Source of the DNA: Antedon mediterranea
Taxonomy: Eukaryota > Animalia > Echinodermata
Length of the DNA stretch: 64,000 nucleotides
Direction: 5' to 3'
Assembly (NCBI RefSeq): GCF_964355755.1
Contig: NC_092672.1
Location: 34,850,437 to 34,914,436 of the forward strand
Shown: positions 30,063 through 61,479 of the stretch, in pieces
Numbering within the stretch: the stretch's first letter is position 1
Layout: each line of letters begins with the position of its first letter
Position numbers and translations under genes: made by a program
The notes under the pieces: model-generated
What the model was told of the DNA's origin: nothing
The model's input: only the letters and a program-made list of their open reading frames with translations
Database searches by the model: none

Positions 30063-30771
30063 AATGTCAAAAACTCAGTTCCATTGAGACTGAAATACAA
30101 TGTTTTATTTTGATTATTCAGTTTGTGCATTCCAATTAAATTTGACGTCCAAATATTTTGTTTTTGTAGCATTCTTTTTCGGAAACTGAAAACCGCCATT
30201 TATTTTCTATTTCAGTGTTTGGACTCGTCGATTATTCGCCAGGGATGTAAATCATAATTCCTAAAGTGTCATTCTGTTGGTGGCGCTAACTAACGCGCGC
30301 GTTTAAATACTGTTACACGTCGACAACTTTGTATAAATACAATGCAAAATCAGTTATAATTATTATGTTGACTTATTGGTTTATTATAGAATGATAGAAA
30401 ATTACGAAAAGAGTGTTTGAAATTAACGTTTTTGTTTTACGGGCACCGGCAAGAACAGTTGTGGACTATCATATATACATTTTATCGCTTCTCGTCACAA
30501 ATTCGAGGCTACCACACCGTACAACATATGTTATTAAATCCCTTGCATATTGCACCGGATCTGATAGACACAATTCACCGGTAGTTCTTCTGCCGATACC
30601 GTGGTATTGATTACATTGTTATTATATAAGTTAGTCAATGTTCACACTTAAAGCAAATCAACTATTGTTCTGTATCAACAAAGGTGGTTCAAATACAAAC
30701 ACGTTTGCGCTCGGCGTTCAGATTATACTGTATCATTGAGGAAAGAGGTGATCAAAATAGACCTACTCAAA
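30063..30771. promoter_or_regulatory. Putative divergent promoter region (ankyrin gene / TMEM79-like gene)
   Basis: Start codons ~710 bp apart, head-to-head; YY1-like AAATGGCGG on minus strand (~30193-30201); CpG-rich palindrome aacgcgcgcgtt (~30292). Confidence 0.4.
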
Positions 30772-31335
30772 ATGTCTCCTAAAAAGGACACCCAATCTGG
30801 AATAATACAAGATGGCATCATAGCACTGATTCTGTTCTCCGTCTACTCATACATCGGGTGGAATTACCTTCCTATTGAGACTACAGGCTTGGATTCTGTA
30901 TTCGATCGTCTGATATTCACCGCGCGCTGGCAAGTATTGGAGGTAGTCCTTCTGTTTACGATGATCATGGTAGTAGCCAACACCCGGTTTAGGAGTGTGG
31001 ACAAAATTGGAGATCCGACTAAACCAATGCCACCATCCCATATCATTACCGTGCATATTCGAGTTCTCCAGAATACTGTGGAGCAGTTGGCTCTGAGAGC
31101 ACCGTTTGAACTCATTCTCTCTACATATCTCGAGCAGACGTCAATGAAACTGATTCCGTTGTTGGTCACGTTTTTTGTGGTAGCAAGGATCATTTTCTGG
31201 GTTGGATACACCCGTGGTCCATTTCAAAGAGCTCTTGGATTTTCAATGACATTTATGCCGACGATGTTGATGATGTTTTTCAATCTGTATTGCTTCTTCA
31301 CCAAAGGAGCAACGTTCGGATTGTCTTCTGCTTAG
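30772..31335 (+). CDS. TMEM79: TMEM79-like / MAPEG-superfamily membrane protein, paralog 1 (intronless)
   Basis: Several hydrophobic helices; motifs 'VHIRVLQNTVEQ', 'LSTYL...KLIPLL', 'ARIIFWVGY' match MAPEG/TMEM79-like proteins; first ATG at 30772. Orthology not tested. Confidence 0.75.
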   Translation: MSPKKDTQSGIIQDGIIALILFSVYSYIGWNYLPIETTGLDSVFDRLIFTARWQVLEVVLLFTMIMVVANTRFRSVDKIGDPTKPMPPSHIITVHIRVLQNTVEQLALRAPFELILSTYLEQTSMKLIPLLVTFFVVARIIFWVGYTRGPFQRALGFSMTFMPTMLMMFFNLYCFFTKGATFGLSSA

Positions 31336-32484
31336 ATTAGACGTCGAGCACCATTTGACATGTCTAAGAAGACATGACGTCAACTTCTGTTCTGGTTATC
31401 GTTGTATTAGTATAGAAGAGACTCTAGGAACTCGCCATTAGAAACGATACCGTACGTCACTGACTATAACTGTACTCTTTCTCTCTGTATGTTCTGGACA
31501 GCAAGCTCTTTTGCTTCTTTCGTCAAACTAGCTGTCGATTACAACTTTCAAAACATTTCTTAGAATGCTTGAATATTATTTTTAAAGCAACATCGTCTCC
31601 TTTTATTACTTAAACGTCATTGGTAGCTGAATAATTATGAATATCACAGTAGTAAATCGAAAATAAAAAACAATTTTGTCATTCATTTTTTAATAGAGTT
31701 GAATAAAAAAAACCAAGCGCAATTGATTTTACTTATTAGTAGGACCACAAAGGAGCGATACATGGCCGGAAGGGGATTACGATAGATGATATTGGCACAA
31801 ACAGCGGATAAAGTACCCAGTGATAGGAAATAATGGAAGAGTATAATCTTTACTTTATTTCATTATCCCATGGATGTATAGCCTTTGAATTTGTTTGATC
31901 TTGAACAGCTGCTTGAAAGAATCATTACCGTATTAAGAAAAATGCATTGAATTGCATGAAAATAACTATATTGCATCGGCCTAATCGTTAATTTTGCAGC
32001 ATAGCCGCCATACAACGGGTAATTTCAATGTATTGGTTAAACCATGGAGATCTTGATTAAATATATGCTGCCTCTTCGATAGTCCAAAAAAGATCTATTG
32101 ATTCACGATCATACTCGACGATTTTAATCAATTGACGGAACGTGTATTGATTTATTCCAGGACCCTAATATCAGATTACACCATTGTGCTATTGTATGTT
32201 CAAATAGAGCAAAGAAAACAGTTCTTTGGTTCAACGGACTATTAAAGCAAAGAAAGGAACGAAAGCGGTTCGGAGTTCGAACATATTTGCAGCCAATTAA
32301 ATCTGACCTTTTCCGTTGTATACCCGGTACAATTGTGTTGTTTTTTAAAGGCGTTGTCGTCTTGCAAAGACTAGTGTAACGGTTGTGCCAACTGTCTAAG
32401 CCTTCTCTTTGACGTGACACAGGACTTCATCGTGAATTCAACAGTACTATAAGGTGAATTACTCAATTACCAACTGACCTCAAA

Positions 32485-33021
32485 ATGACACTTAAATCTG
32501 AAATCGAATCCAGAATCAAGAGAGACAATGCAATTGGATTTCTCCTTCTGGCTGCATATTTTTACGTCGGATGGAACTATATCAATTTCCAGACTTCTAA
32601 TCTGAATGCTGTCCTGGATCGTCTGGTGTACACCGCTCAATGGCAGATACTGGATGTTGGCCTTTTGATTGTCATGATTTTGACGGTTGGTATGACTCGT
32701 GGAAGTGACCTTACAAAAGTTGGAGATCCCACTAAGCCTATGCCAGCATCACACGTCATCAACGTTCATTGCCGAGTTCTCCAGAATACTGTGGAGCAGT
32801 TTGTTATCAGAGCTCCTTCGGAACTCATTCTCTCCACATACTTGGACGCAGGTTGTATGAAGATTATACCATTGCTGGTGATATTGTTTGTGGTTGGAAG
32901 GGTTGTTTATTGGATTGGATACGTCAAAGATCCTTTTAAGAGAGTTTTGGGATTTACATTGACACAGATGCCAACCATCTTCATCGTGTTTTATTGTGTG
33001 TATTCTTTGATAGCAATGTGA
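32485..33021 (+). CDS. TMEM79: TMEM79-like / MAPEG-superfamily membrane protein, paralog 2 (intronless)
   Basis: 178-aa ORF co-linear with paralog 1 (GDPTKPMP.SH, RVLQNTVEQ, ELILSTYL, GRVVYWIGY). Confidence 0.75.
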   Translation: MTLKSEIESRIKRDNAIGFLLLAAYFYVGWNYINFQTSNLNAVLDRLVYTAQWQILDVGLLIVMILTVGMTRGSDLTKVGDPTKPMPASHVINVHCRVLQNTVEQFVIRAPSELILSTYLDAGCMKIIPLLVILFVVGRVVYWIGYVKDPFKRVLGFTLTQMPTIFIVFYCVYSLIAM

Positions 33022-33567
33022 TTCTCTATCTATTATAGGCTATCTATACTATAGGCATTTAATAACTATAACTTCGACATTTCTGTCAGCAACATTCTCG
33101 TTAAATGATCACAATCAGTTAACAGCTTTCTACAGTGTTACAACACATACCCGTATTTCTTCATTTTACTCATCAAGAAAAAAATAAAACGAAATAACTG
33201 GTTGAAACGTCAGATAAACACCATTTTTATTGTGTTTATTATATCTTATAAAATATTCTGTATAATTATGAAGAAATAAATAACATTTTGATCTAAAATA
33301 TTAACAGCATTAACTATCTACAGTAAACTAAAGGAAAATGCGTCAATAGTAAAGCTCATGTTTAAAATGAATTAGAAACATTAAATAAAGTTTTCTTTCT
33401 AAACATTCTGTTTATATTATTATTTTGCTTTCTTTAAAAATGCTAAGTTATCATGTGATCTTCGGTTTTTACATTATTATTAGCGGTTTAGTTATTTTCT
33501 CTTTCGTTAAACATTTGATTATGTACAGAGTGAGGCCTAGATTAAACGCAAACAATAAAATAAAATG

Positions 33568-36500
33568 TCACATTGTATTGAGGAAACTTCCTGGGTATGT
33601 CCAATTTCGTCCAAAATCGAACATCTCTATTGGCAATTGGTTGACCACCGGGTCAGTGTAATTCATAAATTCGTAAGCGCTTCTTCTTCGTTTGTATGAA
33701 GAGCTGAAAGAATAAGTGACAAAGTTTAATACTATTTGTTTTATTACGTAGGTCTAAAATTACTGCGCATGCCCTTGATGATGTCATTACCTACCTGTGT
33801 TTGCATAGGCTTGTCCCATCTTTGAATTCCTAACTGGTCTTTCATTTTTTGCTGAATACACGTTACAAAGAACATTTACTTTTGGTACAAAAATGGCGAT
33901 AAAAATAAGAGTTGAATTTAAAGTTAATCCGACACAAACACTTGCTACCTCATAATCCGTATCGTCTGATAAAACATAGACGCACGTCCACGCGATGACG
34001 CAACATATAGTTGAGACGCACGCAAGAAAAATGAATCTCGCCTCGCTATTTACACTTGATGAACTTAAAGCTCCAAAAGATGATATTAATGAAAATAATA
34101 CTAGAAAGCAAGCGTACGATAAAGATATAACTAAATCCAGTTTTTCGAAGGAGCACAGTGTCTCGTTATTTGAATTTAAAACAGTTGATGGATGTTCAAG
34201 AATCAGCCATTCGACAACCAACACAATTTCCGCCATTAAAAATACAAAGAAAAATAGAGTTTGTGATGAAGCACCAATAAATCCGATTGGTTCTTCCGGA
34301 ACCAAACGACGACGTAGTCTATTAATCCGGATGATTTTAACTGATAGTGCAGAGAAGACGATGGCATACACAAAACTGACACCAACTCGTCTTATACCGC
34401 AAACGATTACTGTAGGTTTGACCATAAATGGTAAATTCATTACATACATCAATATCAATCCAATAATTAGCCAGATACTCAGGTTAAGAGATGCTTCAAT
34501 GACAACAGTGTGACGTCTGTAGTAAAATAAGTAACCAGCAACTAACAAAATCAATGCAGCAAATGTTGCAGAAGCCGCCAAAACGATGGTTACCCAGTAG
34601 CCTTCAACATTCCAGACGATACTTTCACTGTCATCAGGTTCATTAGTTTCGCCGGTTGTTTCTGGTGATGACGTCTTGCAATTGCAGAGCGTACCAACAG
34701 GACATGTCGACGTTCTTACACCCTCTTGGAGATTGCCATTGATGTCGTACGACTTGATCTTGGTAACATCAATTAGTAGCGTTCCAGACAGTATACTTCC
34801 AACCTTAAAATGAAATGTCATTTGGTACGGTAATTAAACATACACAAAGGACGACAGTCATGACCTTTGTTTCAGGGTAAGCTAGGCCTATATGGACTAA
34901 TACTTGTTGATGCTATAATACTGTACCTGTATTTCTTTGGCATTCTGATCACCTATCTGATTAAAAATAACAATCTCGTCTTCAATCTCTCCCTCATTAA
35001 ACTTGATAGATTCTTCGCTGATTGGTGGATGAATTTCAACATTTGCTAATGTATTGTATATACCCTTTGAATCAGGTTCCAAAAATTCCCTGCATATCGA
35101 CATTGCATTCTCTTTACAAAGAGTAGAAAGTCTGTTGTGAGCTGCTTGCGCAATCATATATACAGATTTAATCGTTTCAGCAACCAGATCTGATATACGA
35201 AGAAGAGATTCATCAACGCTTGTTAAGGTCAAGCCTTTTTCACATATTGGGACGGGAGACGTAAATTCATCTTCAAGTCTACAATTAGCTAGTATTTCAA
35301 AATACTCTCTAAACCAAGGATTTCCATGATCGTCAAGTGGATTGATGTTTTTCAGATACGTCTCAAATTCAGTAAGATCATACTTGTATTGTCTTCTTGT
35401 GGATAATGTTGCTATTGGTGAGTTCTTAAAAGCTGTGACGTCATGGATGCTTGGAAATGATCCTACCCACATTACATTGGCTTCATTTGTTCCAAAGGTA
35501 GCTCTGCTTTCGAGCAGCATAGAAAAATGGCCGTCAGACAAGAACGCAACTGCCACGCCTACTTCTGATGTTGATATTTCTGAAATGATTCCATCAAACT
35601 GCAAACGACTTCCATCTTCTGGTATTCCCTTATTCACGGCTATACAAACACCAAGATATTCTATTTCTTTTGTAAATTGCTCAGCTTGAAATCGTTCATA
35701 ATCTGCGTCTGTGTATACAATTGCTATGTATGTCCAATTGAAGTAAATCACTAGCTCCTTTAGAGTAGAGAAAGTTGGTAGTTGGCTTTGTTTGGTAAAG
35801 ATATGATACGGCGCTGATGATGTTGATGCACTTTCGTTATCAAACACAGACGGACTGATCTAAAATGATAATATTTCGACGATAATCTATGTACAAACTA
35901 TAACATTGGTTAAAATGTATGACCAATTACATATTTTATTTTGATACAACAGATATGAAATTTAAACGTTTTTAATTTTAGATCCTGATTAGTTCAGAAC
36001 ATAAGACATGAATTATAGGCATAAGAACGGAAATAATCAATTCTGTAGTAGGCCTAATGATTTTGTTAGTCTTTTTTTTAATAATATTTTACTCACGGCG
36101 GTAAAGCCCAGTATGTTTACAGCATTCGGAACTATAGCAGAAGCCACCACTGAATCAACAGGTCCAATGACAGCAAAGTCATGGCCGTACCGACTAGAAT
36201 TACCAACAATATTCACGAACTGATCATACGCCATCAATGTGCTCCCGCAGTAATCAGCAACGGCTGCCCCAAGATTCAGCCCAGGCAATATGTTATTGTC
36301 TCCATTGATTTTATCCATTGCGTAAATCAAAGCCTGCACTGCTACAACTTCCTCTAGGTTCAAGCTGCCACACCTCAAAGCTGAGGAACCAGCAGTGTGT
36401 GTTGAAAATAAAGCGGGAATAACGATGTCTCCATCAATTATCGACAGCTTAGGGTTTTCGTTAGAGCATGGAAGAGTTTTGTAAGGACATTCTGATGCTA

Positions 36501-39500
36501 CATTTTCAAACTCGGCAACGTTTAATCCTTCTAACCCGACACCATCTTTCCAGGATCCGATCTAAAAAGCAACATATGACAAAAGTTACACATTGGAACG
36601 AAATGAAGAGGAAAACTCTATGAGTTATTTTGAATTTCCGCTGACATCGAGTGTATTTAGTTTAATAGTAAATAGCTTACAGTCTGGTAGCCGAATTCCG
36701 AATTAAGTTCCTCAAATTTGTTGACGTCATACACAGCCGAATTTACTTGTCCATTTTCATCAAATGCGACATCTGACCCACTCAAACTTTCAACCATCGT
36801 TTCATTGATATGAGAGAGCCACTCATCCATTGATACCGATTGTAAATCTTTACAGATAGTACCCACTTCAGGACACTTGTCGCGTATCAACATATCTAAC
36901 GCTGTAGAAAGAACGTACACAGCATCTATAACACTGGAAATAGTGCGACTTTGGGCATCCGTTGCGCTTAAGACATCTGAATCTATGGAAAGTAGTAAAA
37001 GTATACATACATTATACGGCAACATATCATATATTGTTCTAAAATACAACTTACTACTACTGCCGGTATACTTCTTCTCTTAAAATGTACAGTTTAGAAC
37101 GAAGTAAATACACCTTAAAATGTAAAACTGTAAATCACTTTTATAATTAGAATGTCATATTAATTAATCTTATACCATACTTTACAATATTTTTATATTT
37201 ACGCGGCTACTCAACATCTAATCCATGTAATAAATAAATCATTCGATTTGAGTGTATGAGTCACAGAATGCGTCAAAATGTATGGAAGGCCAAACCTGTG
37301 CATAATTCGTCATAGAGGATTGGTTGACCCGGTAATTGGCAGTTGTAGCGTCCCATCCAGAATTCTGCGAACCACGGATCAGCAGAATTGTTTGGTTGTA
37401 ATCCGGTAAAATAAGATTCAAATTCTGAATTGACCAGAGATTTTGGAGAGATGGTTATTGAATCTGAAAGTGACGAAAAACCAAAGATAAAATTGTATTT
37501 ATGAAGTATGACTCATTGGAAAATCAAATCATAGTAAAAAATATATTTTCAGTTTCCATTTTAAATCGGCGAATAATTATTTCTGTTTTAAATTAATATA
37601 TTGTATTTACTCTTGGCGACTGATTTAACACCAACTACAGCTGATGAGTCTAAACCCCATTTGTCTGAAGCCAAAATCTGAAATGTCTGCTCTAGTCCGG
37701 CACGATCAATGGCTCTAAGGAACTGGTTTACTTCTTGAAACTCCAAAAAGACAACAATGACGTCGGATGTTGGATACGCCAGTAATTTGTATATTACGTC
37801 ATCATCGAAAGAGGCGTCTTCGTCTACAACAATTGAGTTTGCAACAAAGATATCGGCCTGTTTGGAAAAAAATATTACTGAATTAATACTTCTTCAACTT
37901 CTTCGAACTTGGTGAAAGAGATCATAAATGGTGCTACGAAAATTTTACAATTTGATATGTTTACTGTTTATTTAAGACTTATTTTACCTTAGCGGCAAGA
38001 TCTTTCAAAGTTTTCACGGCTTCATTTGCATATTGACCTTCTAGAATTTGAATATATTTATATTCAGCTTGTAAAAGAACATCAACCAAAACTCTTGCTT
38101 GTTTTTGGTCAGTGCCAACAACATGATAGAAGTTAACAAGGTCAGCAGTAGATGCAGTTGAAAGTTGTCCAATCTGGACCATGTCAACTGCAGCTAGTTG
38201 CTGGTTGACCGATCTAGTGAGGTCATTCCTATCTGCGCCAATAGCCCCGATTGCATACTGTTGATTTCCGCTTTGTTCTCTATTCATAAAAAGTTCTTCT
38301 GTTTGTTGGAACCCGGATGTGAACTGATACGTTTGAGAACCTGCTATTCTGCTATCGGAGCACGTGTCATACGCTTCCATACCAATTGTCACATTTGGAA
38401 GAATGTTCTCATTGTTATTTATCGTCTGGATAGCATACAACATCGCCTGCATTCGAACGTACCCGGATGTCTTGAAAACACTACAATTGACGTCATGAAT
38501 GGAAAACATCCCTGCGAAAATGACATCACCATATATAATAAATGATTTAGCTGAGCTCGAAAGACATATTGTGCAAGAGTCTGGACAAGTTGAAATTGAA
38601 ATGTCTTCAAGCTGCGTGGATGAATTCCATAACTGTAGGTTATTGATATCAAGTGTTATTCCTGTATCTGTGTTCCATTCACCAACCTACAATATAACAA
38701 AATATATAACAATAGATATTAAAAGGACACCTTCTGGACCAACGTCTTAATAGGGGTAACTACTGAATAAAAAAGTTGGCTGTAGTACATGTACGTTACA
38801 ACATCATATTGACATTCGTTCATTTTACGGGAAAGTATCCCCTGAATAGGAGTACCAAAAGAAGAGTAATCGAAGTACAGTAGTTCTGTACAGATCTTTA
38901 TTAATAACAGTATTTCATTCATTTTCTTTATTTCGAATAGTACATCCGTATACAAATCATACAAAAGAACAAAAAGAGAAACAATTTCACCAGGAAATTG
39001 ACAATATAAGCAACTTCCACAAAACCAACCAACAATAACCTAAAATACTAATTTGCACCAACGCTGATGTAGGTTGGATTGTGGAAGTACGTTAACTATG
39101 GTTTGAATTAGATAAAAACATAAATAGGTTAGGATACATAGGATATTTACTTTTATAAATCTAGATTTTAATCAACCAACCTTAACTAAGGTACTATTTC
39201 CATTATTATCCAATTGTACATTGTGAATATCAAACTCGACATGCTTCGGTTCTCCATTATCTTTAAACACAATCGTCTGATTCAAGGCACCTGTAAAATC
39301 ATCTGTCAAAAGTGTACTCAACAAACTTTGGCCAGCCGCTGAACCAAATCGTTCACATATTCCCACGGTTTCGCCACACAATTCCTGGTGAAGTTTTGCT
39401 AACGCTTCAGCATATATAAACACAGCATCGATTATATTTGAAACGATGACGTCAACATTGTTAAACGTCTCTGATGTAAACTCCGTTGATTTGTTACATG

Positions 39501-41855
39501 GTACACCATAGTCGCCATCTTGTGATAAATCACATTCATTCATATTTTCCCAAGCTCGCGCGAACCAAGGGTTCTCCTCTTTCGACACCAAACTTGGGTT
39601 AAGTGAGCTTAAATATGTTTTGAAGTTTTCGTGAATCTGTCTGGTATATTTCATTGATACGAGTCCACGGATGACGTATTTATGAGTGGTTTGAAGTTGT
39701 AGTGTTGGTTCCACGTTAGATACCCACTGGAGGTAGGACGCAGAATCTCCGACACTTGAAATGGCTTCCATTGCACACGACAAGATGGACGTGTCTTCTA
39801 AAAGAAGAACCACCACTAAAACAAACCAAAAATAATCACATAATAATGGAATAAGGATCAGAAAATTACTTTTGTGTCGATATTTTAATATAACCGTACT
39901 TGCCTTTAATATCAGAGTTTCTTAATATCTTCATAATTCCGTTTTCAAATGTGTCCTGGATCTGAGAAGTAACTCGCACTCTTTCAGCCAGGCATATTCC
40001 AGCGTCATTGGCGTTCGTCAGAAGTTTGTCAAATGTTGTCTCCATAGTTTCTGAATACATGACAGCAACATAGTTCCAATTCATGTTCCAAAGCAGATCG
40101 ACTATAACCTGCAAAAGAAACTCAGCATATTCAATAGAAACATAGAAAAATAACTTCACTTTGTCTACACTATCAAGCTGGTGATGTGCTCAAATATGGT
40201 ACTGATATGCCCAAATAGTGTAGTGATATGATATCATCATGTCCATAGGCACATTTTTTATCACATAACGTTTGATAGTGTAGAAACATAGCATTTTTAA
40301 TAGAACTGAAGCTCCCTAAGGTGGTGCAGTATTATGAGTTTAAACTTTAACCTGTGTACTCTTCATACCTGAACTTGTATCTTCTCTGATGGAGCAAGAC
40401 TGAAGAACGAACTGTGAATATCTCTATTTTCCGTGAATTCAGATGACGTAGCTTCTCCATAGACGATTAAAGGAATATTTTGATATGATAAGAGAGGAGA
40501 TACATATTGAGTTACCTCATCAATCATGGGACCAATTATTCCTGAAATAAACATAATGATTGAAAAAGAACAAGCACGTTTGACATTTTAAATTACCTTT
40601 AAGGCTCTGTCTACACTATCAAACTTTATGTGACAACAAAATGTGATGTGCCCATATGTCATCACTACCATATTTGGGCATATCACCAACACATTTGGAC
40701 ACATCACACTTTTTGGAAAACTAGTTTGATAGTGTAGACAGAGCTTTAGTTAGAGCGACATGCGGTAGGCTCGCACATAATTTGCCAGTAATAGTGGTTT
40801 AAAACGTGAATAATGTATTGTTAATATGTATACTTTTTAATTAAATTATAAGATTATTTTCTTTTTTTCTTTGTTCTATATATTTTGTATTACGATAGAA
40901 AACAAATGCTTCAAAATAAATAGCTGGATAACATGTTCTAATTTATATAACATAATGCGATTTATTTTATAATCGCTTACCTGGTCGTAGTATTACGTCA
41001 CTACATAATGACCCATTTATATTGTATAATTGATTATCGATGTAATTAAGGACATGTTGACCTCCTACTTTATGCGATGAGCAGGAATCAAACGCTTCCA
41101 AACCTGACAAAACAAAGAAAAATCCACTTTAAGAAACCATTATAACAATTATATAAGTACGACATATGACAATCAATCAGTACTTTTGTTGAAGATCTTT
41201 CGACAACATATTGGACTGAATAGGCCTTAATGGAATACTGTATTGCATAATCAAATTCAGCAGAAGGCTTACCATTTTACAATATCTATAACTCATTTAT
41301 TTTCAGTATTTGTTCGACAAAAACGTAGGTCTACTAAAGAGTAAATGAAGCTTATGACTCACAGCCAGAAGTATGGCTACAGACGTTGCAAAATAACCTT
41401 TGAACAACAAACAATAACATTCTCCAAACATTACTGTAGGCCTATTTTTGATGCGCTATTTCCTTATTTGATTCTAAAATGGGCCATTGATTTTGAAAAT
41501 ATATTGTTATCGTATCAATCAATATCAACCAATCCCTGAAATCACATACCCATCAACACATTAAATGCATTTTATGCCCATTACATTGACACTTACCTAT
41601 GCTAACTCCTGGGATTTTGGAGGCATCAGGTATATTCTTTACAGCGTAAATGGCAGCCTCCACAAGAGCGATGTTCTCCGCTATTGGTTCGCTGGAGCAG
41701 AAGTCACCATCTTTACCGAAAAATGGAAAGAGAAATCCTAGACGAACGTTACCATCTACAACACCGACCAAAGGAGATGAACACGTCTGAGACGATGTAG
41801 AAGATGACACTAAAACGCTCGCAAACAGGCTTAGTATTAGTAAAACGATTTCCAT
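33568..41855 (-). CDS. Class C GPCR (metabotropic glutamate receptor-like) with three tandem Venus-flytrap domains and a 7TM_3 domain; 13 exons, roughly 1,780 aa
   Basis: Signal peptide MEIVLLILSLFASVLVSS. Approximate exons 41855-41597, 41103-40981, 40541-40369, 40108-39904, 39815-39181, 38686-37988, 37857-37611, 37464-37297, 36983-36681, 36561-36096, 35859-34927, 34803-33791, 33703-33568. VFT motifs (G..LG..F, A..YA...IN....LP....G....D.C, W.Y, N/DPWF, IDAV) recur three times. 7TM motifs CGIRR, ALSVKIIRINR, EARFI, IFVPK. Confidence 0.9.
40160..40290. mobile_element. MITE family A copy (degenerate)
   Basis: ttgtctacactatcaa...tttgatagtgtaga. Confidence 0.7.
40603..40745. mobile_element. MITE family A copy
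   Basis: gctctgtctacactatcaaact...agtttgatagtgtagacagagct. Confidence 0.85.
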
Positions 41856-42249
41856 CCCGTTCCTGTAATAATACGGTATAAAAGATTGTTTTTCAGAAAG
41901 AGAAGTTTTCTCGGGTTGTAGAGGTTAATGCTGATTTATACACAAACACAATTGTGTTTATACAAATTCAAAAGTCAATGTACTGTTTGTTGAACCTATT
42001 GAAATAATTCAAGCCTACAAACTGTAAACATTACAATCATCAAATACAAAGAATGTAGCTTGATGCAGTAAGGTAGACAAGAGAACATTAATCACGCGGC
42101 TCATTTAAATAATTCGCATTCTCAAGCAAAGTTGTTTATAGATATGATTACTGAATGGTGGAAATATTTCACAAGGGGGCCGCAAATAAAGACAATGACG
42201 ACACGAGTTATTAAATTATTATATATCCTACATCTTAGGCTACAGTTGG

Positions 42250-42590
42250 AGCAGGGAGTTATTTCGACTCCCTGGTCGGAGCTATACTTCTTAATTTATC
42301 CAAGATCTAACCAATGAAAAAAATGATAAAAATGCTTCGCTCAGTTCAATATGCCTAGAAGTTTATTGATAAAAATATAGGCTAAATGAATTGGGATACA
42401 AATGGAGTAGCCGGGAGTTGTTATTTATAACTCCCTGGTCGGAGCTACCTTAATACATGAGTATCTATCTAACTATGGATACTATACTTATTTTATCCAA
42501 GATCTAACCAATGATAAAGACGCCTTGCTCAGTCCAATACTCCTAGGCCTAAACGTTTATTGATAAATACTATAGGCTAAAATTGGGATA
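42250..42590 (+). repeat. Imperfect ~170-190-bp tandem duplication upstream of the class C GPCR
   Basis: 'ctccctggtcggagcta...tatccaagatctaaccaatg...gtttattgataaa...tataggctaaa' occurs twice. Confidence 0.75.
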
Positions 42591-42844
42591 TGGTAATAAC
42601 AATAATATAGGAAATTCAGTTGAAGGTATGATTTAATTGTACAAACTCATTGATTCGTGAATATATTTATTGTGTGTAATAGATTCGGCTTGAAATAGCA
42701 AGGGTAAATCGTGATTTTGTTCTGTTAAATAAAGGAATTTCCAAGCTAATTCACTAGAGGTATAAATGCACTATTACATTGTGGCACTGTAGCTCCACTA
42801 ACATTCAAATTATAAAGAACACATATAGGGCCTACTAAAAATGT

Positions 42845-43045
42845 TACAAGATCGCATTATGATCATACCTATTAAAGAATACTATAAATAATTTGACACA
42901 ACCAATACATTTGGAATGGATTTACTAGTGTAGCCTTCTACAAGATCCTCTTACAAGATCGTATTATGATCATCCTTTAAATGAAGAATACAATAGATAA
43001 TGTGAAACAACCAATAGATTGGAATGGATTTACTAGTGTAGCCCA
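42845..43045 (+). repeat. ~105-bp tandem duplication
   Basis: 'ttacaagatcg.attatgatcat...ttggaatggatttactagtgtagcc' occurs twice. Confidence 0.75.
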
Positions 43046-52086: not shown

Positions 52087-53592
52087 CTTGTTTTGGAGAC
52101 AACACTTCAATTCAATTATCTATCAAAAAGAGAGTAGAAATCCTTTTAGTTCTAGTCTAAGTCTCCAGTAGTAGGCATAACTTGAGACGACTATCCACCA
52201 ACCGGATACAATGACAGGGACAAGCTGAAGTCGGCCTAGGCCTAGTACACAGTAGTAGGCTCTCTATACTATGTGTAGAGCCTAGCACTGTTAGTCGTCG
52301 GGGTATCACCTCTTCTTAAATAGTTAGTCCTAGCCTTGCTTGCCTACCTGACCTACCTACACAATATTAACGATTTCGCTACCTTAAGATTCAAACAATC
52401 GCATTTACATTGAACAATAGTTAAAATCAGTTTTTGCAAACATTTATATACTTAAAAAATTAATCATTTTCAATATAAATTACCTAATATAGGACAATTA
52501 CAGAATACTGGAAAAACCAAAATTATGATCGCTTATCTCTGGTTTGTCTATTTTTGTGTTTTGTAGGCGTAGTGGAAAATACGAATAGAAACGGTTCAGA
52601 CACATCATTGATGATGCTGCTAAGTTACTAATATGGATTCAAGACGGAGTTTTGACTTAATATTAGTAAATATGTCTAGCTAAGGTGTGTATTCTTTTTT
52701 AATAATGTTTAAACCAAAGAAATTAACATTTATTTTACCTATTTTCTTTAAAAATATAACAATAATGAAAGTCAAATACTATGATATATGAGTCATGATT
52801 GGTTATTCATCTCATTTATAACAATTTTTGCGTCGGCGAAAAGTAGTGGGAAATTTCATAATACGCATGCGCATTAGTCTACGCTGTTAATCCGCGCGAA
52901 TAAATTCGCTTGATGAAAAACCAGCCTAATTTTACCGGTAAATAAAAAAACCAGGATTTTCATTGTTGATATTTTGTTTTCGTTGTGCCGGATGTTATTT
53001 ATCGGATCGACAGTAACCGCCACGTATTGTTTTGTTGTTCATTACGTGCTGGCGTTGGCTAATTAATCTCTATTTTTTAATAAAAGATCATAATTTTAAA
53101 GCGCACATTACAAGTTGCGCCACTTTAGGCAAAAGTTCATGCTCTTCCATCAAGTGCTCTTGCGTGTTTGTGTGGTTTAAGCAATCAATGCGATATTTAG
53201 GTTAATTACCGTATTAAAACACGTCAGCTAATTTAGTGACTGTTGGTGCATTTTCTTTTAATTTACCGGTAACACTTTTCTCTCATTGGTTTAACGTAAC
53301 ACAAGGAGGACGTACGCGCTACGCACGAAATTGACCAATCAGGGGCGACAATCTGATAATCCGTCCGACTCTCGACCTAACGTTATGACGTAATTTCACT
53401 TTAAATAGACCATGCCCCTACATGCAATTACGTGTAATAACCAACTTCAAATATCTTGCAATATCATCAAATGAAGCGGTCTTCTCTAGTGACGTCATCG
53501 TTTTGGGTGTAGTCTGAATGGGAAACTTGCGTACACACGGACCGACAACATTTCTGATTCTGTACAACTTTAGACTGCTTCAAAAAATAAAA

Positions 53593-54471
53593 ATGTCTTT
53601 AAATTCAACGTGTGATTACAATACTAACTTCCAACAAACCATTGTGAAAGGATTTATTTTTGTAACTATTCTGTGTTGTTTAAATCTAACTTTCAATGGT
53701 TTAATCATCTTTGTTATTCTGAAATCGAAGGTGCTTCGAAAAAAACATAATTTTTACATCGTATCATTAGCCTTGGCAGATTTCATAAATGGAGTGATTT
53801 ATTTTACGTGTATAATAACGGTATATTCAAATACCGTTTTGTCTTTAATGCAACCTTCACTGATGCTTACTTCGTTACTGAGTGTTGCGTGTGTTGCGCT
53901 GGACCGTTACATCGCGTTGGTTTTCGCTCCATTGCGTTACACCGTGATCGTCACCACAAAACGTCAACTGATCATCGGCGCTATAATTTGGCTTGTGCCG
54001 ATTTTAATCGTTATTATGTTATTTCAAACCATGCAATCTTTTAATATCGCCTTGGCATTAGTCTGTCTTACGCTACAATTAATTACTATCAATCTTTATT
54101 TTCTCATTTACCGAAGTATTCGCAAATCTGATCATTATATTTCATCGATGAATGTTTTCAATTTAAAGCGATCGAAGAAATTACTAACTACGTGTTTGAT
54201 TATAACACTGGTTTACTTCTTCTCATGGCTGCCGTTTTTATGCCTGAATTTCTTCACTGCATTTCCGCAAATAATATGCTCTATGGACTCGTTATATGTA
54301 CATTTATTTTTCTATTCTTGCAATTTAGCGTTTATAAACACAGTGATAAATCCAGTTATCTACTGGTTTAATTTACCAAATTTTCGAGAAGCAGTTTATG
54401 AAATTTGTGGAAAAAACAAAAAGTCATCTACGCTAGCTTTAAATAATTTCCCCAAAAACACAAACATATAA
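53593..54471 (+). CDS. Intronless class A (rhodopsin-like) GPCR, divergent cluster member
   Basis: 7 hydrophobic segments; N(TM1), SLALAD, DRY, W(TM4), SWLP, NPVIY. ORF is open from 53518; MSLNST start is inferred from paralogs. Confidence 0.9.
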   Translation: MSLNSTCDYNTNFQQTIVKGFIFVTILCCLNLTFNGLIIFVILKSKVLRKKHNFYIVSLALADFINGVIYFTCIITVYSNTVLSLMQPSLMLTSLLSVACVALDRYIALVFAPLRYTVIVTTKRQLIIGAIIWLVPILIVIMLFQTMQSFNIALALVCLTLQLITINLYFLIYRSIRKSDHYISSMNVFNLKRSKKLLTTCLIITLVYFFSWLPFLCLNFFTAFPQIICSMDSLYVHLFFYSCNLAFINTVINPVIYWFNLPNFREAVYEICGKNKKSSTLALNNFPKNTNI

Positions 54472-54932
54472 AACATTATATAAACAATGACAGTAAAGCA
54501 TAGGCATACTAGTCGTCACAACAATTCAAACCTTAGAAAGGATTCAACTTCTATAAAAGGGCCAACAATTTATTTACGATTTATTTCGTCAAATCCTGAC
54601 ACTCAATCAAACACTCAAGAAAATTAATAACAATACCGAAGACTTAATAATAACGTTAACCATGATTGACAAAGAAGTTTTTAATAACATTGAATCTTGG
54701 TGGATAGGTACCAATGCACTTCAAACCAATTATTACATGTACACTATTACAGTATTATGACGAAGTATATAGACGAAGGAGTAAAGCAAGCTTAAATTCT
54801 ACATCTGAACACAACGTTGGAAATTGTCTAAAGATGGCTCTGTTCTCTCTTATAACTAAATTATCTTGACGAAGAATTGGGTGTTGGGTGAGTCTATAAG
54901 GTTGATCACAAATAGCGAGTGCGTGGCGCGTA

Positions 54933-55002
54933 GTGGGAAAGGTTTAGGCTAGGAGCAAACGTCACGTACGCGTCGTGACGTTTGCTCCCAATCCTTTCCC
55001 AC
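54933..55002. repeat. GC-rich foldback palindrome
   Basis: gtgggaaagg...ggagcaaacgtcacg-tacgcgt-cgtgacgtttgctcc...cctttcccac. Confidence 0.8.
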
Positions 55003-55431
55003 CATGCATTGTGCAATGACGTTCCTCGGGAAATCAAGCTATTTGCAATAACCTTTTAATCTCTGCAACTAAATCTATCTTGTTTTAGACGTAAATTACG
55101 TTTGTTTTTCTGATGACATACGTGAAGAAAACTTCACGAGGTACAGGGATATCGATAACATTTCTTATTTACATTCTTATGGAAACCTATTTGATGAGAA
55201 ACTAATTTTTGAATATTGTGTTTTAACAGAAACATTTGATGCTAAATGAAGTATGGATAATCTAAAAATATTGCTTGTTAAACCCAATAAAGAAGATTTT
55301 GGATATTATATTATCACTGTATGCTGTAACTGATGACGTAGACAATTCTCACGGTGCACTTCTGAAGGTTCTAGGAAATAACAATAATATCTCTATACTT
55401 CAATGACATTTTAACCACTGCAAGTTTTACA

Positions 55432-56313
55432 ATGAATATCTCTACCAATAATTCATCTTGTGAATCAATTTATATTGAGTATACTAAAACGTTCTATGAA
55501 TACGTACTTACAGCTATCAAACCAGTGGTTTCAATAATTTGTATTTTGATTGTGCTTTTAAATGGTGTTGCAATATTTGTAATTCTTAGATCTAAGAAAC
55601 TGCGAAAGAAACACAATGTTTTCATCGTATCTTTGGCATTTGCAGATTGTGCAAACGGACTTGGATATTGTGTGTATGTTATTTTATATATATTTCGATC
55701 GAGTACAAATGATGTTATTTATTGGTTTTTGATGTCGATCATTTTTGCGTCAATGCTTAACGTAAATTGCGTTGCTGTAGATCGTTACATTGCGTTAGTA
55801 TACGCTCCTTTACGTTACGAAGTAGTCGTAACATTTAAACGTCAGATAACCGTTTGCGCTGCGATTTGGATTGGACCAATGTTTATTATGTTTGTCTTGT
55901 TTTACATTACTGCATTTTATTTTACTCTGTTAATAATAGCAGTAATTGTTCTCATGGTTTTAATAATAACTGTTTGTCTTTATTTTAAAATTTATCACAG
56001 TATTTCTAAATCAGATCATTATCTCGCTTCAATGAATATTTCAAACGCAAAGAAGTCCAGAAAATTACTAAAAACCTGCTTAACAATAACAATCCTGTAT
56101 TGTATTCTCTGGTTGCCATATCTTGTAATAAGTTGTCTTGTTTTTATACCAGGGTTAGCATGTTACCTCGGTAGATCACTTGTTTATATGAATTTCTTTT
56201 CTGGAAGTCTGGTTTTTATCAATTCTTTGACTAATCCTCTAATATACTGGTATAATTTACCGGATTTCCGAAACTCATTTTATGATATTTGTGGAAGAAA
56301 AGAGAGATGTTAA
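55432..56313 (+). CDS. Intronless class A GPCR (293 aa)
   Basis: SLAFAD, DRY, LWLPY, NPLIY; N-glycosylation sequons NIS/NSS. Confidence 0.92.
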   Translation: MNISTNNSSCESIYIEYTKTFYEYVLTAIKPVVSIICILIVLLNGVAIFVILRSKKLRKKHNVFIVSLAFADCANGLGYCVYVILYIFRSSTNDVIYWFLMSIIFASMLNVNCVAVDRYIALVYAPLRYEVVVTFKRQITVCAAIWIGPMFIMFVLFYITAFYFTLLIIAVIVLMVLIITVCLYFKIYHSISKSDHYLASMNISNAKKSRKLLKTCLTITILYCILWLPYLVISCLVFIPGLACYLGRSLVYMNFFSGSLVFINSLTNPLIYWYNLPDFRNSFYDICGRKERC

Positions 56314-59011
56314 ATAAGTTACAATAAGATACCGAACTATACAGACTTTGTTTTATAAAAATGACAATATATTACACACATACTATTCGCATATAAGTCA
56401 ACAGCCGGCATATTAAACACGAGTAAATAATTATAATTTTAACAAACTTTGAAGTTATTTTTCAACCAATCAAATGTAAGTTTAAATAACAATGATAAAA
56501 CAACAATAAGAAACATTGGTGTTGTTGAGTTTTATCATTAGCTTAATCTTACTTATAGAATTGAAATCTCATATTAGATAAAACAAATACCTACACATAG
56601 GTGATTATAGTTGGGTTTTCACTAACATCTAGGCTATCGGTAGTAAGTTTGTTTTATATAAGCATTACTATTATTACTTATTATTGATTGTATGTTGCAG
56701 GGATTGTATATCGAAATAGAAACTTATGCTATTAATAAAAAAAACAAAACATTGATTAAACATTAAGAGATTAATAAACGGTTCGTTTTGCACATTTATT
56801 AACCTTCAATGTAGGCTATAATCTGTATACTAGACGATTAATTACCGACTTGAAAGTAATTTTGGTTTTATAAAAATTGAAATCGTGTTAGTTTTACCTT
56901 CAATGTTTAAAAAAACCTCTATTTTTAAACACGATTTTCATATTTAGTAAATTTGTAGAAACAAGTTTGATGTAAATTAAAACCATGTAATAATCTACAA
57001 AATGAGAAAATCGATTTGTAATTATGTAACGTAACATTCATAGACTAATTATAAAATAAATGAAACTGAGTAGAGATTTCAAACACAATAGCTGTTGAAA
57101 AATTTATCAAATAATCTGAAAAATAAAGAATAAAAAAATACAACCAACCGATAAAAACTATAATCGAGCTCAAACACTGACTGTAATACTTGGCAAAATC
57201 AAAGATCTATGAGTAAAAGGTTTCTAAGATATTTTGCAAAATGGACAAAGCGATAGAGGGTGCACTATTTGTAATTCTTTAAGATACAGATAACTCGATA
57301 TTTTAATAAGCTTTGGTATCGTCCACAATAAACATTTCACATTTAATTATGTTCAATTAGTGAACTATGTACATTTATTTTTTTCTGGATGTATATCTTT
57401 TTTCAATTATTGGCAACCTTATAATATACTGGTATAATTTACCGTACATGTACAGATTAAGGCTCAAATCTTAAAAAACAAACTTGAGTCTGAGTATTTT
57501 CAAATAGGCCTATAAATAAATATAAGTATATCCTTAATTATTTTTTTATGACTATTATGAAACATTTTAAATTTTGTTAACTAAAGATCAACGAAGATGC
57601 GGTTTGTAACTAAATGACCTACGAAGATGAGAGAAGAATTTTTTCAAAAGGCCAATTTCTGCTAAATTGATTTAGGTATAAGAAGACCTCGTCAAAAAAT
57701 TAGCATTTCGTCAAATCAAGCATGTAAATAAAAATAACATCAATGTCAGAGAACATTAATAACAACACCGAAGGTAATAACGTCTATTACGTGTGACAAC
57801 CAAGGTTTTAATAAAACAAAATTTACGAATATTTAAAAATGGATTAAGTTTCTTATTAAAACTTGTGTAATTAGTTAAATTAAATTAGATTGAAATGACA
57901 CAAAATGATATGCCTATGACAACAACATGAGCCTTATATTTGGACAATCCCATGAGAAGTGACTATTTTAGAACATTGTGTACAAACAACAAAAAATATC
58001 TAAAGAATTTAATTTTTAGCATCGGCCATTTTGAAATCCAAGATTGCCGACAGATTATCGCTTTACATAGTTAAAATTGTATAATGGGTAATACCATCAA
58101 AACGGACTTGTTCCACATTCATAATTAATATTCTGTCTGCCATCTTGAATTTGGTTCTTTAAATGTCTTTAGAAAAAATGGCAACATATTTTTTTTTTCA
58201 TTACTTATATTATGAAGATATTAAATAAAGTCAAAGTTTGCTTTTAACAAAAGATGTACACGACATTCATATAAACGACATACCAGCCTACACTACTAGT
58301 TTGAAACTATAGTGACAATTTATTTCAGTCATGCCGCTAATGATTGAAAACCTCACTTTTTGAGCTTTTAAAACGTAACGCTACCCGGGGCTCCAGCGTC
58401 TAATTGATACAAAATGCAATCAATAACATCAATGTCAGAGAACTTTAATCACAACAACAACAACAATAACGTCAATTACGTATGACAACCAAGGTTTTAA
58501 TAAAAACAACAATTATTAAGAATAGTCGACACACTGTTAACATGATTTTAATAGATTAATTAAAGAGGTTTTAGAAGTATATAAAAATGAGAAAAATGTA
58601 CTTTGTTCGCATCTGTCGTCGTTGAAGCAAAGGAATGAAAGCATATACGTAAACTATACATCTGATTGTTTCCATATTGATGGTCTTTTTGTCTAAACTT
58701 TAACAAATATTAAAACTTGACAAAGTACTGTGCGTGTTTGGCGAGTCTTTTTCCAAAGAAGCCTACATCAGATTTTTATGGAAGCAAACATTTTTGCTGC
58801 GAAACACGTTTTTTTTTTAAACTTTACTACTAATCATACACGTAGTATATTTGATGCTAAACGAAGTTCGTAATAATTGAATAATCTAAAATAAACTTTC
58901 ATTCTGTGGACAATTTTCTCACGTTCTACTTGTTTAAAGGTTCTACGAAAGACTAAATATCGTATCTTCATTTACAAGCAAGTGTCGCCATTCATCACTG
59001 CAAGTTTTACA

Positions 59012-59892
59012 ATGAATATCTCCACCAATAATTCATCTTGTAGATCCGTTTCTGAGTATACTGAAATGTTCTATGAATACGCAATTACAGCTATCATACC
59101 AGTGGTTTCAGTAATTTGTATTTTGATTGTTCTTTTAAATGGTGTTGCAATATTTGTAATTCTTAGATCTAAGAAACTGCGAAAGAAACAAAATGTTTTC
59201 ATCGTATCTTTGGCATTTGCAGATTGTGCAAACGGAATTTGGTTTTGTGTGTATGTAGCTGTAAGCTTCTATCGTCAGATTTTGGGTTTAATTATTGTTA
59301 TAAACGTGTTATTAACGTCAATTCTTTTTACCTCAACGCTTAACGTAATTTGCGTTGCTGTAGATCGTTATATTGCGTTAGTATACGCTCCTTTACGTTA
59401 CACAATAGTCGTAACAATTAAACGTCAGTTTGCGCTACGATTTGGATTGGTCCACATTGCATTATATATATACTTTTTTACATTAATACTCATACTTATT
59501 TTAATCCGTTAATATTTGCCGTATTTTTCCTCATGGTTTTAATAGTAACTGTTTGTCTTTATTTCAAAATTTATCAAAATATTTCCAAACCAGATCATTA
59601 TCTCGCTTCAATGAATATTTCAAACGCAAAGAAATCCAGAAAATTACTAAAAACCTGCTTAACAATAACAATGGTGTATTGTCTCCTCTGGTTGCCATAT
59701 CTTGTAATAATTTGTCTTGTTTTTATACCAGGGTTTACATGTTCTCTTGGTATAATACTTTCATATATGCGTTTCTTTTCTGGAAATCTGGTTTTTATCA
59801 ATTCTTTGACTAATCCTATAATATATTGGTATAATTTACCGGATTTCCGAAACGCATTTTATGATATCTGGGGAAGGAAAAAGAAATGCTAA
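59012..59892 (+). pseudogene. Class A GPCR pseudogene (frameshifted)
   Basis: Versus 60598-61479: 7-bp deletion at ~59428 (cgtcagtt[gactgtt]tgcgct) splits the frame into ORFs 58982-59512 and 59533-59892. Confidence 0.85.
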
Positions 59893-60597
59893 TTAAAATA
59901 TACGACAAATGTTAATTAAAATAAAAAGTGTATAGCATGGTATAAACGAGGACCTCGAGTACACCAGCAGTGAATTCAACTGATACTATGTCAATGACGG
60001 CCATGTTTTCAGATGATTTTAGATAGCACACAGGAATTTCTCGCACAAAAGCCAGAAGCCGCCACTGTAGACGACATTGATAATTTGAACAAAAGTCAAT
60101 ATATTTGTTATAATTTGAAATCGTGTTGCAATAAAGTTGAAGTGGTTTTATAATACAGAAGTAATAATCTTTAGGAATAGAATAATTATAAAACCACAAG
60201 AAAAATCGATGATTGTGAGACTTGGAGTTAATAAACTCTTCCATCAGTACGTTCAGTATATTTTTCATAAAACATGACAACCATTGGTCAATTAAGACAA
60301 CAGGGAATGATGGACAGAATACTTTTACAAGTTTATTCTATCGACATATTATTAAACCGACCGAAGTTTCAACAAAATTGATGTAGTGTACGGTGTTCAT
60401 TGTACTTTTCCCATTGTCTTTGCTAGTGCGTTCTACATTTTCCTTGCAATACTGATTCTGAAAACTTTAACTGTGCTGTAACGTGATTCGTTGGACAATT
60501 TTTTTCACGTTCTACTTGTTTAAAGGTTCTACAAAAGACTAAATATCGTATCTTCATTTACAAGCGAGTGTCGCCATTCATCACTGCAAGTTATACA

Positions 60598-61479
60598 ATG
60601 AATATCTCCACTGATAATTTATCTTGTAGATCCGTTATTGAGTATACTGAAATGCTCTATGAATACGCACTTACCGTTATCATACCAGTGGCTTCAATAA
60701 TTTGTATTTTGATTGTGCTTTTAAATGGTGTTGCAATATTTGTAATTCTTAGATCTAAGAAACTGCGAAAGAAACGTAATGTTTTCATCGTATCTTTGGC
60801 ATTTGCAGATTGTGCAAATGGACTTGGATATTGTGCATATGTAGCTATACGCTTCTATCATCCGAGTTTGGGTATAATTATTCTTATAAACTGGTTATTA
60901 ACGTCAATTCTTTTTACGTCAATGCTTAACGTAAATTGCGTTGCTGTAGATCGTTATATTGCGTTAGTATACGCTCCTTTACGTTACACTGTTGTAACAA
61001 TTAAACGTCAGTTGACTGTTTGCGCTGCGATTTGGATTGGTCCAAATTGCATTATATGTATCTTTTTTTACATTAATACAACTCCTTTTATTTCGTTAAT
61101 AATAGCCATATTTTTTCTCATGGTTTTAATAGTAACTGTTTGTCTTTATTTCAAAATTTATCAAAATATTTCCAAACCAGATCATTATCTGGCTTCAATG
61201 AATATTTCAAACGCAAAGAAATCCAGAAAATTACTAAAAACCTGCTTAACAATAACAATGGTGTATTGTCTCCTCTGGTTGCCATATCTTGTAATAATTT
61301 GTCTTGTTTTTATACCAGGGTTTACATGTTCCCTTGGTATAATACTTTCATATATGCGTTTCTTTTCTGGAAGTCTGGTTTTTATCAATTCTTTGACTAA
61401 TCCTATAATATACTGGTATAATTTACCTGATTTCCGAAACGCATTTTATGATATCTGGGGAAGGAAAAAGAAATGCTAA
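60598..61479 (+). CDS. Intronless class A GPCR
   Basis: Complete 7TM ORF; SLAFAD, DRY, LWLPY, NPIIY; ATG at 60598. Confidence 0.92.
   Translation: MNISTDNLSCRSVIEYTEMLYEYALTVIIPVASIICILIVLLNGVAIFVILRSKKLRKKRNVFIVSLAFADCANGLGYCAYVAIRFYHPSLGIIILINWLLTSILFTSMLNVNCVAVDRYIALVYAPLRYTVVTIKRQLTVCAAIWIGPNCIICIFFYINTTPFISLIIAIFFLMVLIVTVCLYFKIYQNISKPDHYLASMNISNAKKSRKLLKTCLTITMVYCLLWLPYLVIICLVFIPGFTCSLGIILSYMRFFSGSLVFINSLTNPIIYWYNLPDFRNAFYDIWGRKKKC

Follow-up and report, generated by a model that had tools for sequence, protein, structure and literature searches.

The locus analyzed here raises the question of whether one gene can place three Venus-flytrap (VFT) modules in series on a single 7TM and, if so, what such a receptor would sense. 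In the literature that we searched, class C receptors have one flytrap per chain, with a CRD or a short stalk linking it to the 7TM. The window is a stretch of 64,000 nucleotides from Antedon mediterranea (NC_092672.1, positions 34,850,437 to 34,914,436); the coordinates below are positions within it, and all the features described lie on its minus strand.

Exon structure and reading frame

Manual splicing of the window joined 13 coding exons into one stop-free frame of 1,752 aa (33663..41855). Exons 1 to 5 lie at 41855-41597, 41103-40981, 40541-40369, 40108-39904 and 39815-39181, exon 6 at 37988..38686, exons 7 to 9 at 37857-37611, 37463-37296 and 36982-36681, exon 10 at 36097..36561, and exons 11 to 13 at 35859-34927, 34803-33795 and 33703-33663. 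The introns are GT-AG in 11 of 12 cases and GC-AG in the remaining one. The original prediction, that a single gene encodes a signal peptide, three VFTs and one 7TM, is upheld by this frame, by the orthologue and by the family described below, with two changes at exon ends. Exon 10 ends at 36097 and not at 36096, and the first proposed end of the CDS, 33568, is rejected; it needs a donor at 33791 that was never seen. A contig of run X1, which we guess to be RNA, contains the splice from 33795 to 33703, and RefSeq and the orthologue use the same donor at 33795, so the CDS ends at 33663.

It was also claimed that the modules do not belong to three neighbouring genes, and we reject that alternative on the evidence of the two junction exons and of the colinear orthologue. 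Exon 6 holds the end of VFT1, a three-cysteine linker and the start of VFT2, while exon 10 holds the end of VFT2, a linker and the start of VFT3, and in each the frame stays open past the last strand of the preceding VFT and on into the following one, with neither a stop nor a new signal peptide. When the part before the 7TM was scanned for hydrophobic segments (KD19 > 1.6), we found aa 1-22 and four weak segments (1.62-1.77) within the modules, and none at any module start. The predicted signal peptide (about aa 1-22; 41790..41855) is based on that first hydrophobic segment and not on a signal-peptide predictor. An assembly artefact is rejected as well, since DNA contigs from other runs cross both junction exons, one single piece spanning 34950-38929, and sequence identity between modules is no more than 20-22%.

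In a second crinoid, Anneissia, the colinear orthologue has 1,763 aa and is 62% identical overall (VFT1 64%, VFT2 62%, VFT3 60%, 7TM 71%, and the two junctions 54% and 62%).

VFT modules, linkers and 7TM

The expected domain content, three ANF_receptor matches and one 7tm_3, was recovered as three successive ANF_receptor passes and one 7tm_3; the Pfam run covered 11 of the 13 exon frames, with a match in nine and none in two. A single mGlu7 VFT query found three domains in the model (iE 3e-39, 1e-55 and 1e-26). Module 1 (aa 30-500; 38582..41768, exons 1-6) has the extra cysteines Cys25 and Cys120 and the lobe-2 cysteine Cys224. Module 2 (aa 512-963; 36484..38548) has the best-kept pocket, lacks a lobe-2 cysteine and is followed by a two-cysteine linker. 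The membrane-proximal module 3 (aa 975-1438; 34699..36450) has the lobe-2 cysteine Cys1164 and a divergent pocket. A short stalk (34615..34698; pLDDT < 50), made of a cysteine stub and a Ser/Thr/Glu-rich stretch, stands where the nine-cysteine CRD would be.

The gene has the features of a class C GPCR, namely VFTs after an N-terminal hydrophobic segment and a 7tm_3 domain (PF00003, E 1.5e-32) that folds into seven helices in the AF2 model. This 7TM (aa 1467-1713; 33874..34614) retains the TM3-ECL2 cysteines (C1538/C1620), the K3.50/R3.53/E6.35 lock and the TM7 PK; the tyrosine of the PKxY motif is N in A. mediterranea and Y in Anneissia. The last coding exon encodes a C-terminal T-x-L, common to all four three-module members, which we take to be a PDZ-type motif.

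The AF2 model, from which module 1 was omitted, folds VFT2, VFT3 and the 7TM at a mean pLDDT of 83, module 2 being folded as a VFT. It gives no rigid path between modules, because the linkers have pLDDT < 50 and the pTM is 0.45. The 38 Foldseek matches listed for this model all carry mGlu, CaSR or (class C) GPCR in their titles.

Comparison with known receptors and ligand pockets

The best sequence and fold matches are mGlu1-8 and the invertebrate class IV receptors (PDB 7mts, 6n52, 9mb9), with which the receptor shares the VFT fold and its cysteines, the class C 7TM, the ionic-lock residues and the lobe-2 cysteine. It differs from them in having three VFTs per chain instead of one, a glutamate pocket that is not intact, a tree branch separate from the single-VFT receptors, and stubs with 3, 2 and 3 cysteines after modules 1, 2 and 3 instead of the nine of the mGluR CRD. 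In the Pfam comparison, NCD3G, the nine-cysteine CRD, was matched in frog mGlu7 and had no match in our receptor.

We compared each pocket with the glutamate pocket of mGlu1 at R78, K409, S165, T188, D208, Y236 and D318 (mGlu1 numbers). Module 1 keeps one of these seven residues, module 2 five and module 3 two, so that an intact full glutamate pocket is absent from all three modules at the positions compared. Modules 1 and 3 lost most backbone residues, while module 2 retains R78 and lost S165. Since only VFT2 keeps most of the amino-acid-pocket residues, three equivalent amino-acid sensors are unlikely, and from its sequence the receptor probably responds to small molecules, glutamate not being among them. 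The pattern differs from that of class IV mGluRs, in which, according to PMC6307864, the backbone residues are kept and R78 and K409 are replaced.

CaSR, T1R, V2R/OlfC and GPRC6A share the class C architecture, with one VFT and a full CRD, and respond to nutrient and chemosensory ligands; by analogy they are a plausible functional model. The CaSR match is much weaker (E about 1e-30, against 1e-72 for mGlu5). Venus kinase receptors are invertebrate proteins with a class C-like VFT, but they are single-pass tyrosine kinases with one VFT. The bacterial sensor kinases BvgS and EvgS are described as dimeric receptors with VFTs in tandem, in which the distal module behaves differently from the proximal one (PMC4352136); these are histidine kinases and not GPCRs, and we liken them by analogy, without sequence comparison.

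Multi-VFT family

It had been guessed that multi-VFT models might exist among uncharacterised invertebrate annotations, and this proved correct: an old family with 2-5 modules occurs in echinoderms, hemichordates, amphioxus, molluscs, a nemertean and arthropods. The 7TMs of 34 of 35 multi-VFT receptors fall on one branch apart from the mGluRs (SH-aLRT 99), supported at 100/100 in a careful tree of 25 rows; most single-VFT rows in these trees are unnamed, and CaSR, T1R and GABA-B outgroups were not deliberately included. Our gene fits this clade in all features, having at least two VFTs, linkers with 2-3 cysteines and a 7TM in the shared branch. Saccoglossus XP_002735016, Anneissia XP_033109263, Lytechinus XP_063971536 and Branchiostoma XP_035696128 agree with it in clade, in the type of linker and in how the modules are laid out; such relatives with 2 to 5 VFTs are database models only, labelled "uncharacterized" or "mGluR-like". 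A 3,927-aa Polypterus record named "CASR" was rejected as a member, since it falls elsewhere in the tree and has the look of adjacent genes fused into one model. No description of a multi-VFT GPCR was found in the literature searched, and subscription papers or bioRxiv supplements may hold one.

Within the family, the gene falls in a three-module subfamily of echinoderms. Three-module members with a 7TM from sea urchin and starfish, the latter N-terminally cut, group with the crinoids (support 100/99). A paralogue with four modules also exists, and the three modules of the subfamily match its modules 1, 2 and 4.

Across the family, inner modules that have the lobe-2 cysteine are followed by at least three linker cysteines in 79 of 80 cases, and inner modules without it by at most two in 13 of 13, from at least three separate losses (alignment-column counts). 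Last modules gave no cysteine parity signal (p = 1) in a regex count, which misclassed several cysteines. According to PMC11362167, mGluRs have one VFT-CRD disulfide, and the co-variation suggests a disulfide of the mGluR type per module. In our receptor, modules 1 and 3 would each have such a bond between lobe 2 and the linker that follows, and module 2 would have none. With module 2 lacking the coupling cysteine and module 3 keeping so little of the pocket, no module resembles a complete mGluR sensor, and the module whose pocket is kept changes from one lineage to another; both points weigh against the reading proposed below. The helix-B loop has a cysteine in 24 of the 26 N-terminal modules but in only 10 of the 98 others, which is no more than a hint of a dimer link.

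Proposed working and alternatives

To the following reading we give slightly better than even chances. The three modules and the 7TM would be translated as one chain, an orphan class C GPCR that would form dimers, with module 1 perhaps providing a link at the tip. Such a dimer would display six clamshells and, as originally suggested, might serve as a multi-ligand or coincidence detector. Membrane-proximal module 3 would move the 7TM as in mGluRs, and the 7TM would couple to G proteins. At the two outer modules, small molecules that are not glutamate would be sensed in addition or would modulate the response, with an amino-acid-like ligand at module 2. As for its origin, the chain would likely go back to an mGluR-like module that was flanked by phase-0 introns and duplicated in tandem.

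The poor pockets of VFT1 and VFT3 would also suit a structural role, in which the same chain uses its outer modules as an arm that binds a protein, the matrix or a surface, or senses force. The many N-glycosylation sites of the 1,752-aa protein, the flexible linkers of the model, the Pro/Thr-rich stalks before TM1 in several multi-VFT relatives and the range of module number point the same way. However, all five backbone-binding residues are kept in module 2 of the Acanthaster three-module receptor, in module 1 of that of Lytechinus, in module 3 of several four-module receptors and in several mollusc and nemertean modules. In the per-module phylogeny, moreover, modules group by position, each position having stayed a separate clade for a long time, and we regard a purely structural role as unlikely.

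GABA-B2 and T1R3 are the model for a ligand-poor partner in a heterodimer, and the receptor could play that part in an obligate heterodimer, its partner being, for instance, the four-module paralogue. Both types are present in crinoids, sea urchins and starfish, and the three-module type lacks the counterpart of module 3 of the paralogue, which keeps the amino-acid pocket and is the best kept there, yet has the more canonical 7TM motifs. Against this, the two types differ in length by one module, so their registers would mismatch along the whole chain, and we consider such a pairing improbable.

Returning to the single three-VFT chain, its continuity depends on intron 4 (39816..39903), the GC-AG intron of 88 nt. 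RefSeq takes a GT donor 4 nt past the GC donor and thereby splits the locus into XP_071944918.1, which matches aa 1-253 of our model, and XP_071944917.1, which matches aa 345-1752. Taken literally, the GT donor at 39900 would give a secreted fragment of 287 aa and a receptor of 1,408 aa without a signal peptide, the locus being split or degraded in this species and no three-VFT chain being made. These two models favour that outcome, as do the GC donor that the continuous model requires and the lack of an intron-4 joint among the X1 contigs, at low cover. On the other side, aa 254-344, which both RefSeq models fail to code in frame, share 66% identity with Anneissia (62% overall), the intron-4 junction aligns with the orthologue without gaps, U1 pairing fits the GC donor at 7 of 9 positions and the GT donor at 6 of 9, and the 1,408-aa model begins in mid-module and lacks a signal peptide. 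We judge a real split very unlikely; the RefSeq division is probably wrong.

Run X1, with low cover over the VFT exons, shows two of the 12 introns spliced (9 and 12; introns 4-12 were covered). One contig, with 20 letters on its short side, joins 36681 to 36561 between VFT2 and VFT3 and extends to 36194; another has intron 9 unspliced. The VFT1-VFT2 and VFT3-7TM joints and a whole-gene transcript were not seen among introns 4-12 of this run, and at such low cover missing joints say nothing. There are at least 27 coding polymorphisms, some of low depth; those listed comprise 10 synonymous and 17 non-synonymous changes (p = 0.06), and 3 of the 19 listed in the VFT region are synonymous.

Skipping of exons between the introns after 39181, 36681 and 34927, which are phase 0 at an identical alignment column in all three modules so that module skips stay in frame, could yield isoforms with one, two or three modules of which the short ones signal, and one module does separate the three- from the four-module type, but X1, at low cover, has no skip joint, and at module boundaries it shows just the 9-to-10 joint, which skips nothing; we find this scarcely credible.

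Meaning of the multi-VFT architecture

More broadly, and quite tentatively, these receptors may form an undescribed class C family that is bilaterian-wide and not seen in vertebrates, in which 2-5 differently tuned flytraps would read several chemical cues and integrate them on one 7TM. A disulfide of the mGluR type would tie every flytrap to the linker after it, and lineages would retune the receptor by adding, dropping or uncoupling whole modules, as in the three-module form of echinoderms. Invertebrate GPCR catalogues thus contain a large orphan family labelled "mGluR-like" or "uncharacterized", whose members are sometimes split as at this locus. Two to five flytraps in series raise the question of how, or whether, closure of a membrane-distal module reaches the 7TM, and the family offers natural variants for that question: receptors with three or four modules, and modules with or without the coupling cysteine.

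Gene model and transcript evidence

The minus strand of the region 32500-43000 was examined, and the exons assembled from splice signals gave 13 coding exons that form a stop-free frame of 1,752 amino acids, from an ATG at 41855 to a stop at 33663. Intron 4 has GC-AG borders, the other eleven GT-AG. A splice acceptor lies at 41861-41862 (minus strand), 7 nt before the start codon, and suggests a non-coding upstream exon. In the frames of 11 of the 13 exons, Pfam placed ANF_receptor, the Venus-flytrap (VFT) module, in eight, 7tm_3, the class C transmembrane domain (7TM), in one, and nothing in two; by Pfam positions, the ANF_receptor profile is traversed three times in succession, and the VFT of frog mGlu7 as a lone query returned three domains. 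The modules occupy residues 30-500, 512-963 and 975-1438, and the 7TM residues 1467-1713. Pairwise identity among the modules is 20-22%, so they are old repeats rather than an echo of the assembly; the junction exons are also spanned by DNA contigs from other runs, one of which is unbroken from 34950 to 38929.

RefSeq divides this gene in two. XP_071944918.1 (287 aa) equals residues 1-253 of our model and is thereafter out of frame, because its GT donor lies 4 nt beyond the GC one. XP_071944917.1 (1,408 aa) begins at M345; exon 6 matches an A. mediterranea RefSeq protein at 100%. The crinoid Anneissia japonica has a single 1,763-aa chain, XP_033099524.1, that carries three ANF_receptor stretches and one 7tm_3 and is colinear with our model (62% identity overall). 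Residues 254-344, which the split leaves uncoded, are 66% (60/91) identical to this orthologue, and the GC donor agrees with the U1 consensus at 7/9 positions against 6/9 for the GT donor. These comparisons favour a continuous gene across intron 4. Given the stop-free frame and the colinear orthologue, the original prediction of three VFTs and one 7TM on a single chain is upheld, and we are highly confident that the gene encodes it.

Run X1, which we counted as RNA by guess, has low cover of the locus, and its joints were listed over 33600-40170 and thus for introns 4-12. Its splice from 33795 to 33703 places the C-terminus at 33663 and disfavours the end at 33568 first proposed. One X1 contig joins 36681 to 36561, with 20 nt on the shorter side of the joint, and continues into module 3; an unspliced intron-9 contig is also present, and this low-cover listing holds no further spliced joints, intron 4 included. 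Two tandem intronless MAPEG-family ORFs (30652-31335 and 32458-33021, plus strand) are arranged tail to tail with the receptor gene, and their 3' ends may overlap, since a single X1 contig spans the second ORF and the last two receptor exons.

A family of multi-VFT receptors

Word searches recovered four-module receptors in Amphiura (2), Lytechinus, Acanthaster and Diadema. When residues 33-1200 of the Anneissia orthologue were compared by phmmer with 1.84 billion representatives, many proteins of 1,300-2,900 aa came up. Our model and 158 stored proteins made up the 159 rows examined; 37 of these have at least two near-complete modules and a 7TM match, and 20 of the 149 new rows were traced to named organisms. 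Four modules occur in Saccoglossus, a second Anneissia gene and a scorpion, three in Lytechinus, and two and three in Branchiostoma; Acanthaster has three stretches in an N-terminally cut record, and the other rows named are from two bivalves, one gastropod and one nemertean (5) and from a stick insect. Three Logan records encode proteins of 2,376-2,802 aa, each on one contig of 8.6-10.2 kb, a length that fits spliced transcripts. The top ESM Atlas cluster, a 1,368-aa 7tm_3 and ANF_receptor group commonest in arthropods, is only a lead.

A quick tree was built from 87 7TM domains, after excluding 71 rows without a 7TM above 200 aa and one duplicate (P0001); one side of a branch with SH-aLRT 99 holds 34 of the 35 multi-module rows. 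The remaining one, Polypterus KAG2462629.1 (P0029), annotated as "CASR", has 3,927 aa and ten ANF stretches, lies outside the multi-VFT clade and is probably a fusion of neighbouring genes. A careful tree of the last module and 7TM of 25 chosen rows supports the multi-module clade at 100/100, an ambulacrarian clade at 100/99, a three-module group of two crinoids, starfish and sea urchin at 100/99, and a four-module group with Saccoglossus at 97/94.

In per-module trees, modules 1, 2 and 3 of the three-module echinoderm subfamily pair with modules 1, 2 and 4 of its four-module paralogue (supports 97, 93 and 99 in one tree set; 100/100, 98/95 and 89/89 in another), and either the three-module form lost module 3 or the four-module form gained it. 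All three modules of our receptor carry a phase-0 intron near their end, in the identical alignment column, which fits a tandem duplication of a symmetric unit; the positions of the other eight introns within the modules do not match between modules.

Multi-VFT GPCRs are described nowhere in the mostly open-access papers searched, nor in excerpts of PMC6307864, PMC12716839, PMC7042368, PMC6267866, PMC8115157 and PMC11362167; five identifiers are absent from the 12 supplements of PMC6307864. In excerpts of other papers, tandem VFTs occur in BvgS (PMC4352136), and the Saccoglossus four-module protein is a GPCRdb mGluR, consistently misclassified, with no comment on its architecture (PMC5568607).

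Ligand pocket, linkers and coupling

Seven mGlu1 pocket positions, including R78 and K409 (from an excerpt of PMC6307864), were transferred to the modules through the frog mGlu7 alignment. Modules 1, 2 and 3 keep 1/7, 5/7 and 2/7 of these residues, and those of Anneissia 1/7, 4/7 and 0/7. The full pocket is found in 0 of 61 multi-module domains, so glutamate is an unlikely agonist; the five backbone residues, the other pocket positions, are all kept in 9 of the 61, versus 8/8 single-VFT controls. Which module keeps the pocket varies among lineages. Our best guess is that module 2 binds an amino-acid-like ligand.

The linkers differ from the mGluR-type cysteine-rich domain (CRD; NCD3G) in having two or three cysteines instead of nine, and NCD3G had no match in any long member scanned except the Polypterus record. 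Among 93 inner modules, whose relatedness inflates these counts, at least three linker cysteines accompany a lobe-2 cysteine in 79/80, and at most two occur in 13/13 without it; the sole exception has a long linker, with three cysteines in a separate count. Despite this relatedness, there were at least three separate losses of the lobe-2 cysteine: in module 2 of the crinoids, module 1 of Lytechinus and module 3 of the scorpion/stick insect group. Since the two sites co-vary and one CRD cysteine of mGlu5 is bonded to the VFT (excerpt of PMC11362167), we infer a similar disulfide in modules 1 and 3, absent from module 2. Modules 1 and 3 would then be pinned to the following linker and module 2 would be unpinned, which cuts against a simple coupling picture, as the module with the best pocket is the one lacking the putative bond. 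We lean only slightly towards the specific sensing mechanism proposed.

Two extra module-1 cysteines occur in 16/16 proteins checked, one of them in the helix-B loop, the site of the inter-subunit bond in mGluRs. The 7TM retains K3.50, R3.53, E6.35 and the TM3/ECL2 cysteines, and T-x-L is the C-terminal motif of all four three-module members. Modules 2 and 3 with the 7TM were modelled by AF2 (mean pLDDT 83, pTM 0.45, low-confidence linkers), and Foldseek matched this model to chains of mGlu, CaSR and other class C receptors.

Variation and genomic neighbourhood

Among the differences listed between individuals, some at low depth, 16/19 are non-synonymous in the VFT region (34927-41103), 1/6 in the 7TM and 0/2 in the segment just before it; relaxed or diversifying selection on the VFT region is possible. 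Short, very high-copy repeats at 40180-40300 (intron 3), 40600-40750 (intron 2), both with 21-bp units, and about 38940-39110 (intron 5) are likely small transposable elements. On the plus strand, four clustered intronless class A GPCR-like ORFs lie at 53518-61479, the first matching 7tm_1 and the third (58895-59892) broken across two frames, and a reverse-transcriptase-like ORF in two overlapping frames at 62110-63619 is presumably a broken non-LTR retroelement.

The feature is real, and its three-module architecture is a new variant among class C GPCRs; judged by its sequence, the receptor belongs to an old invertebrate multi-VFT family.
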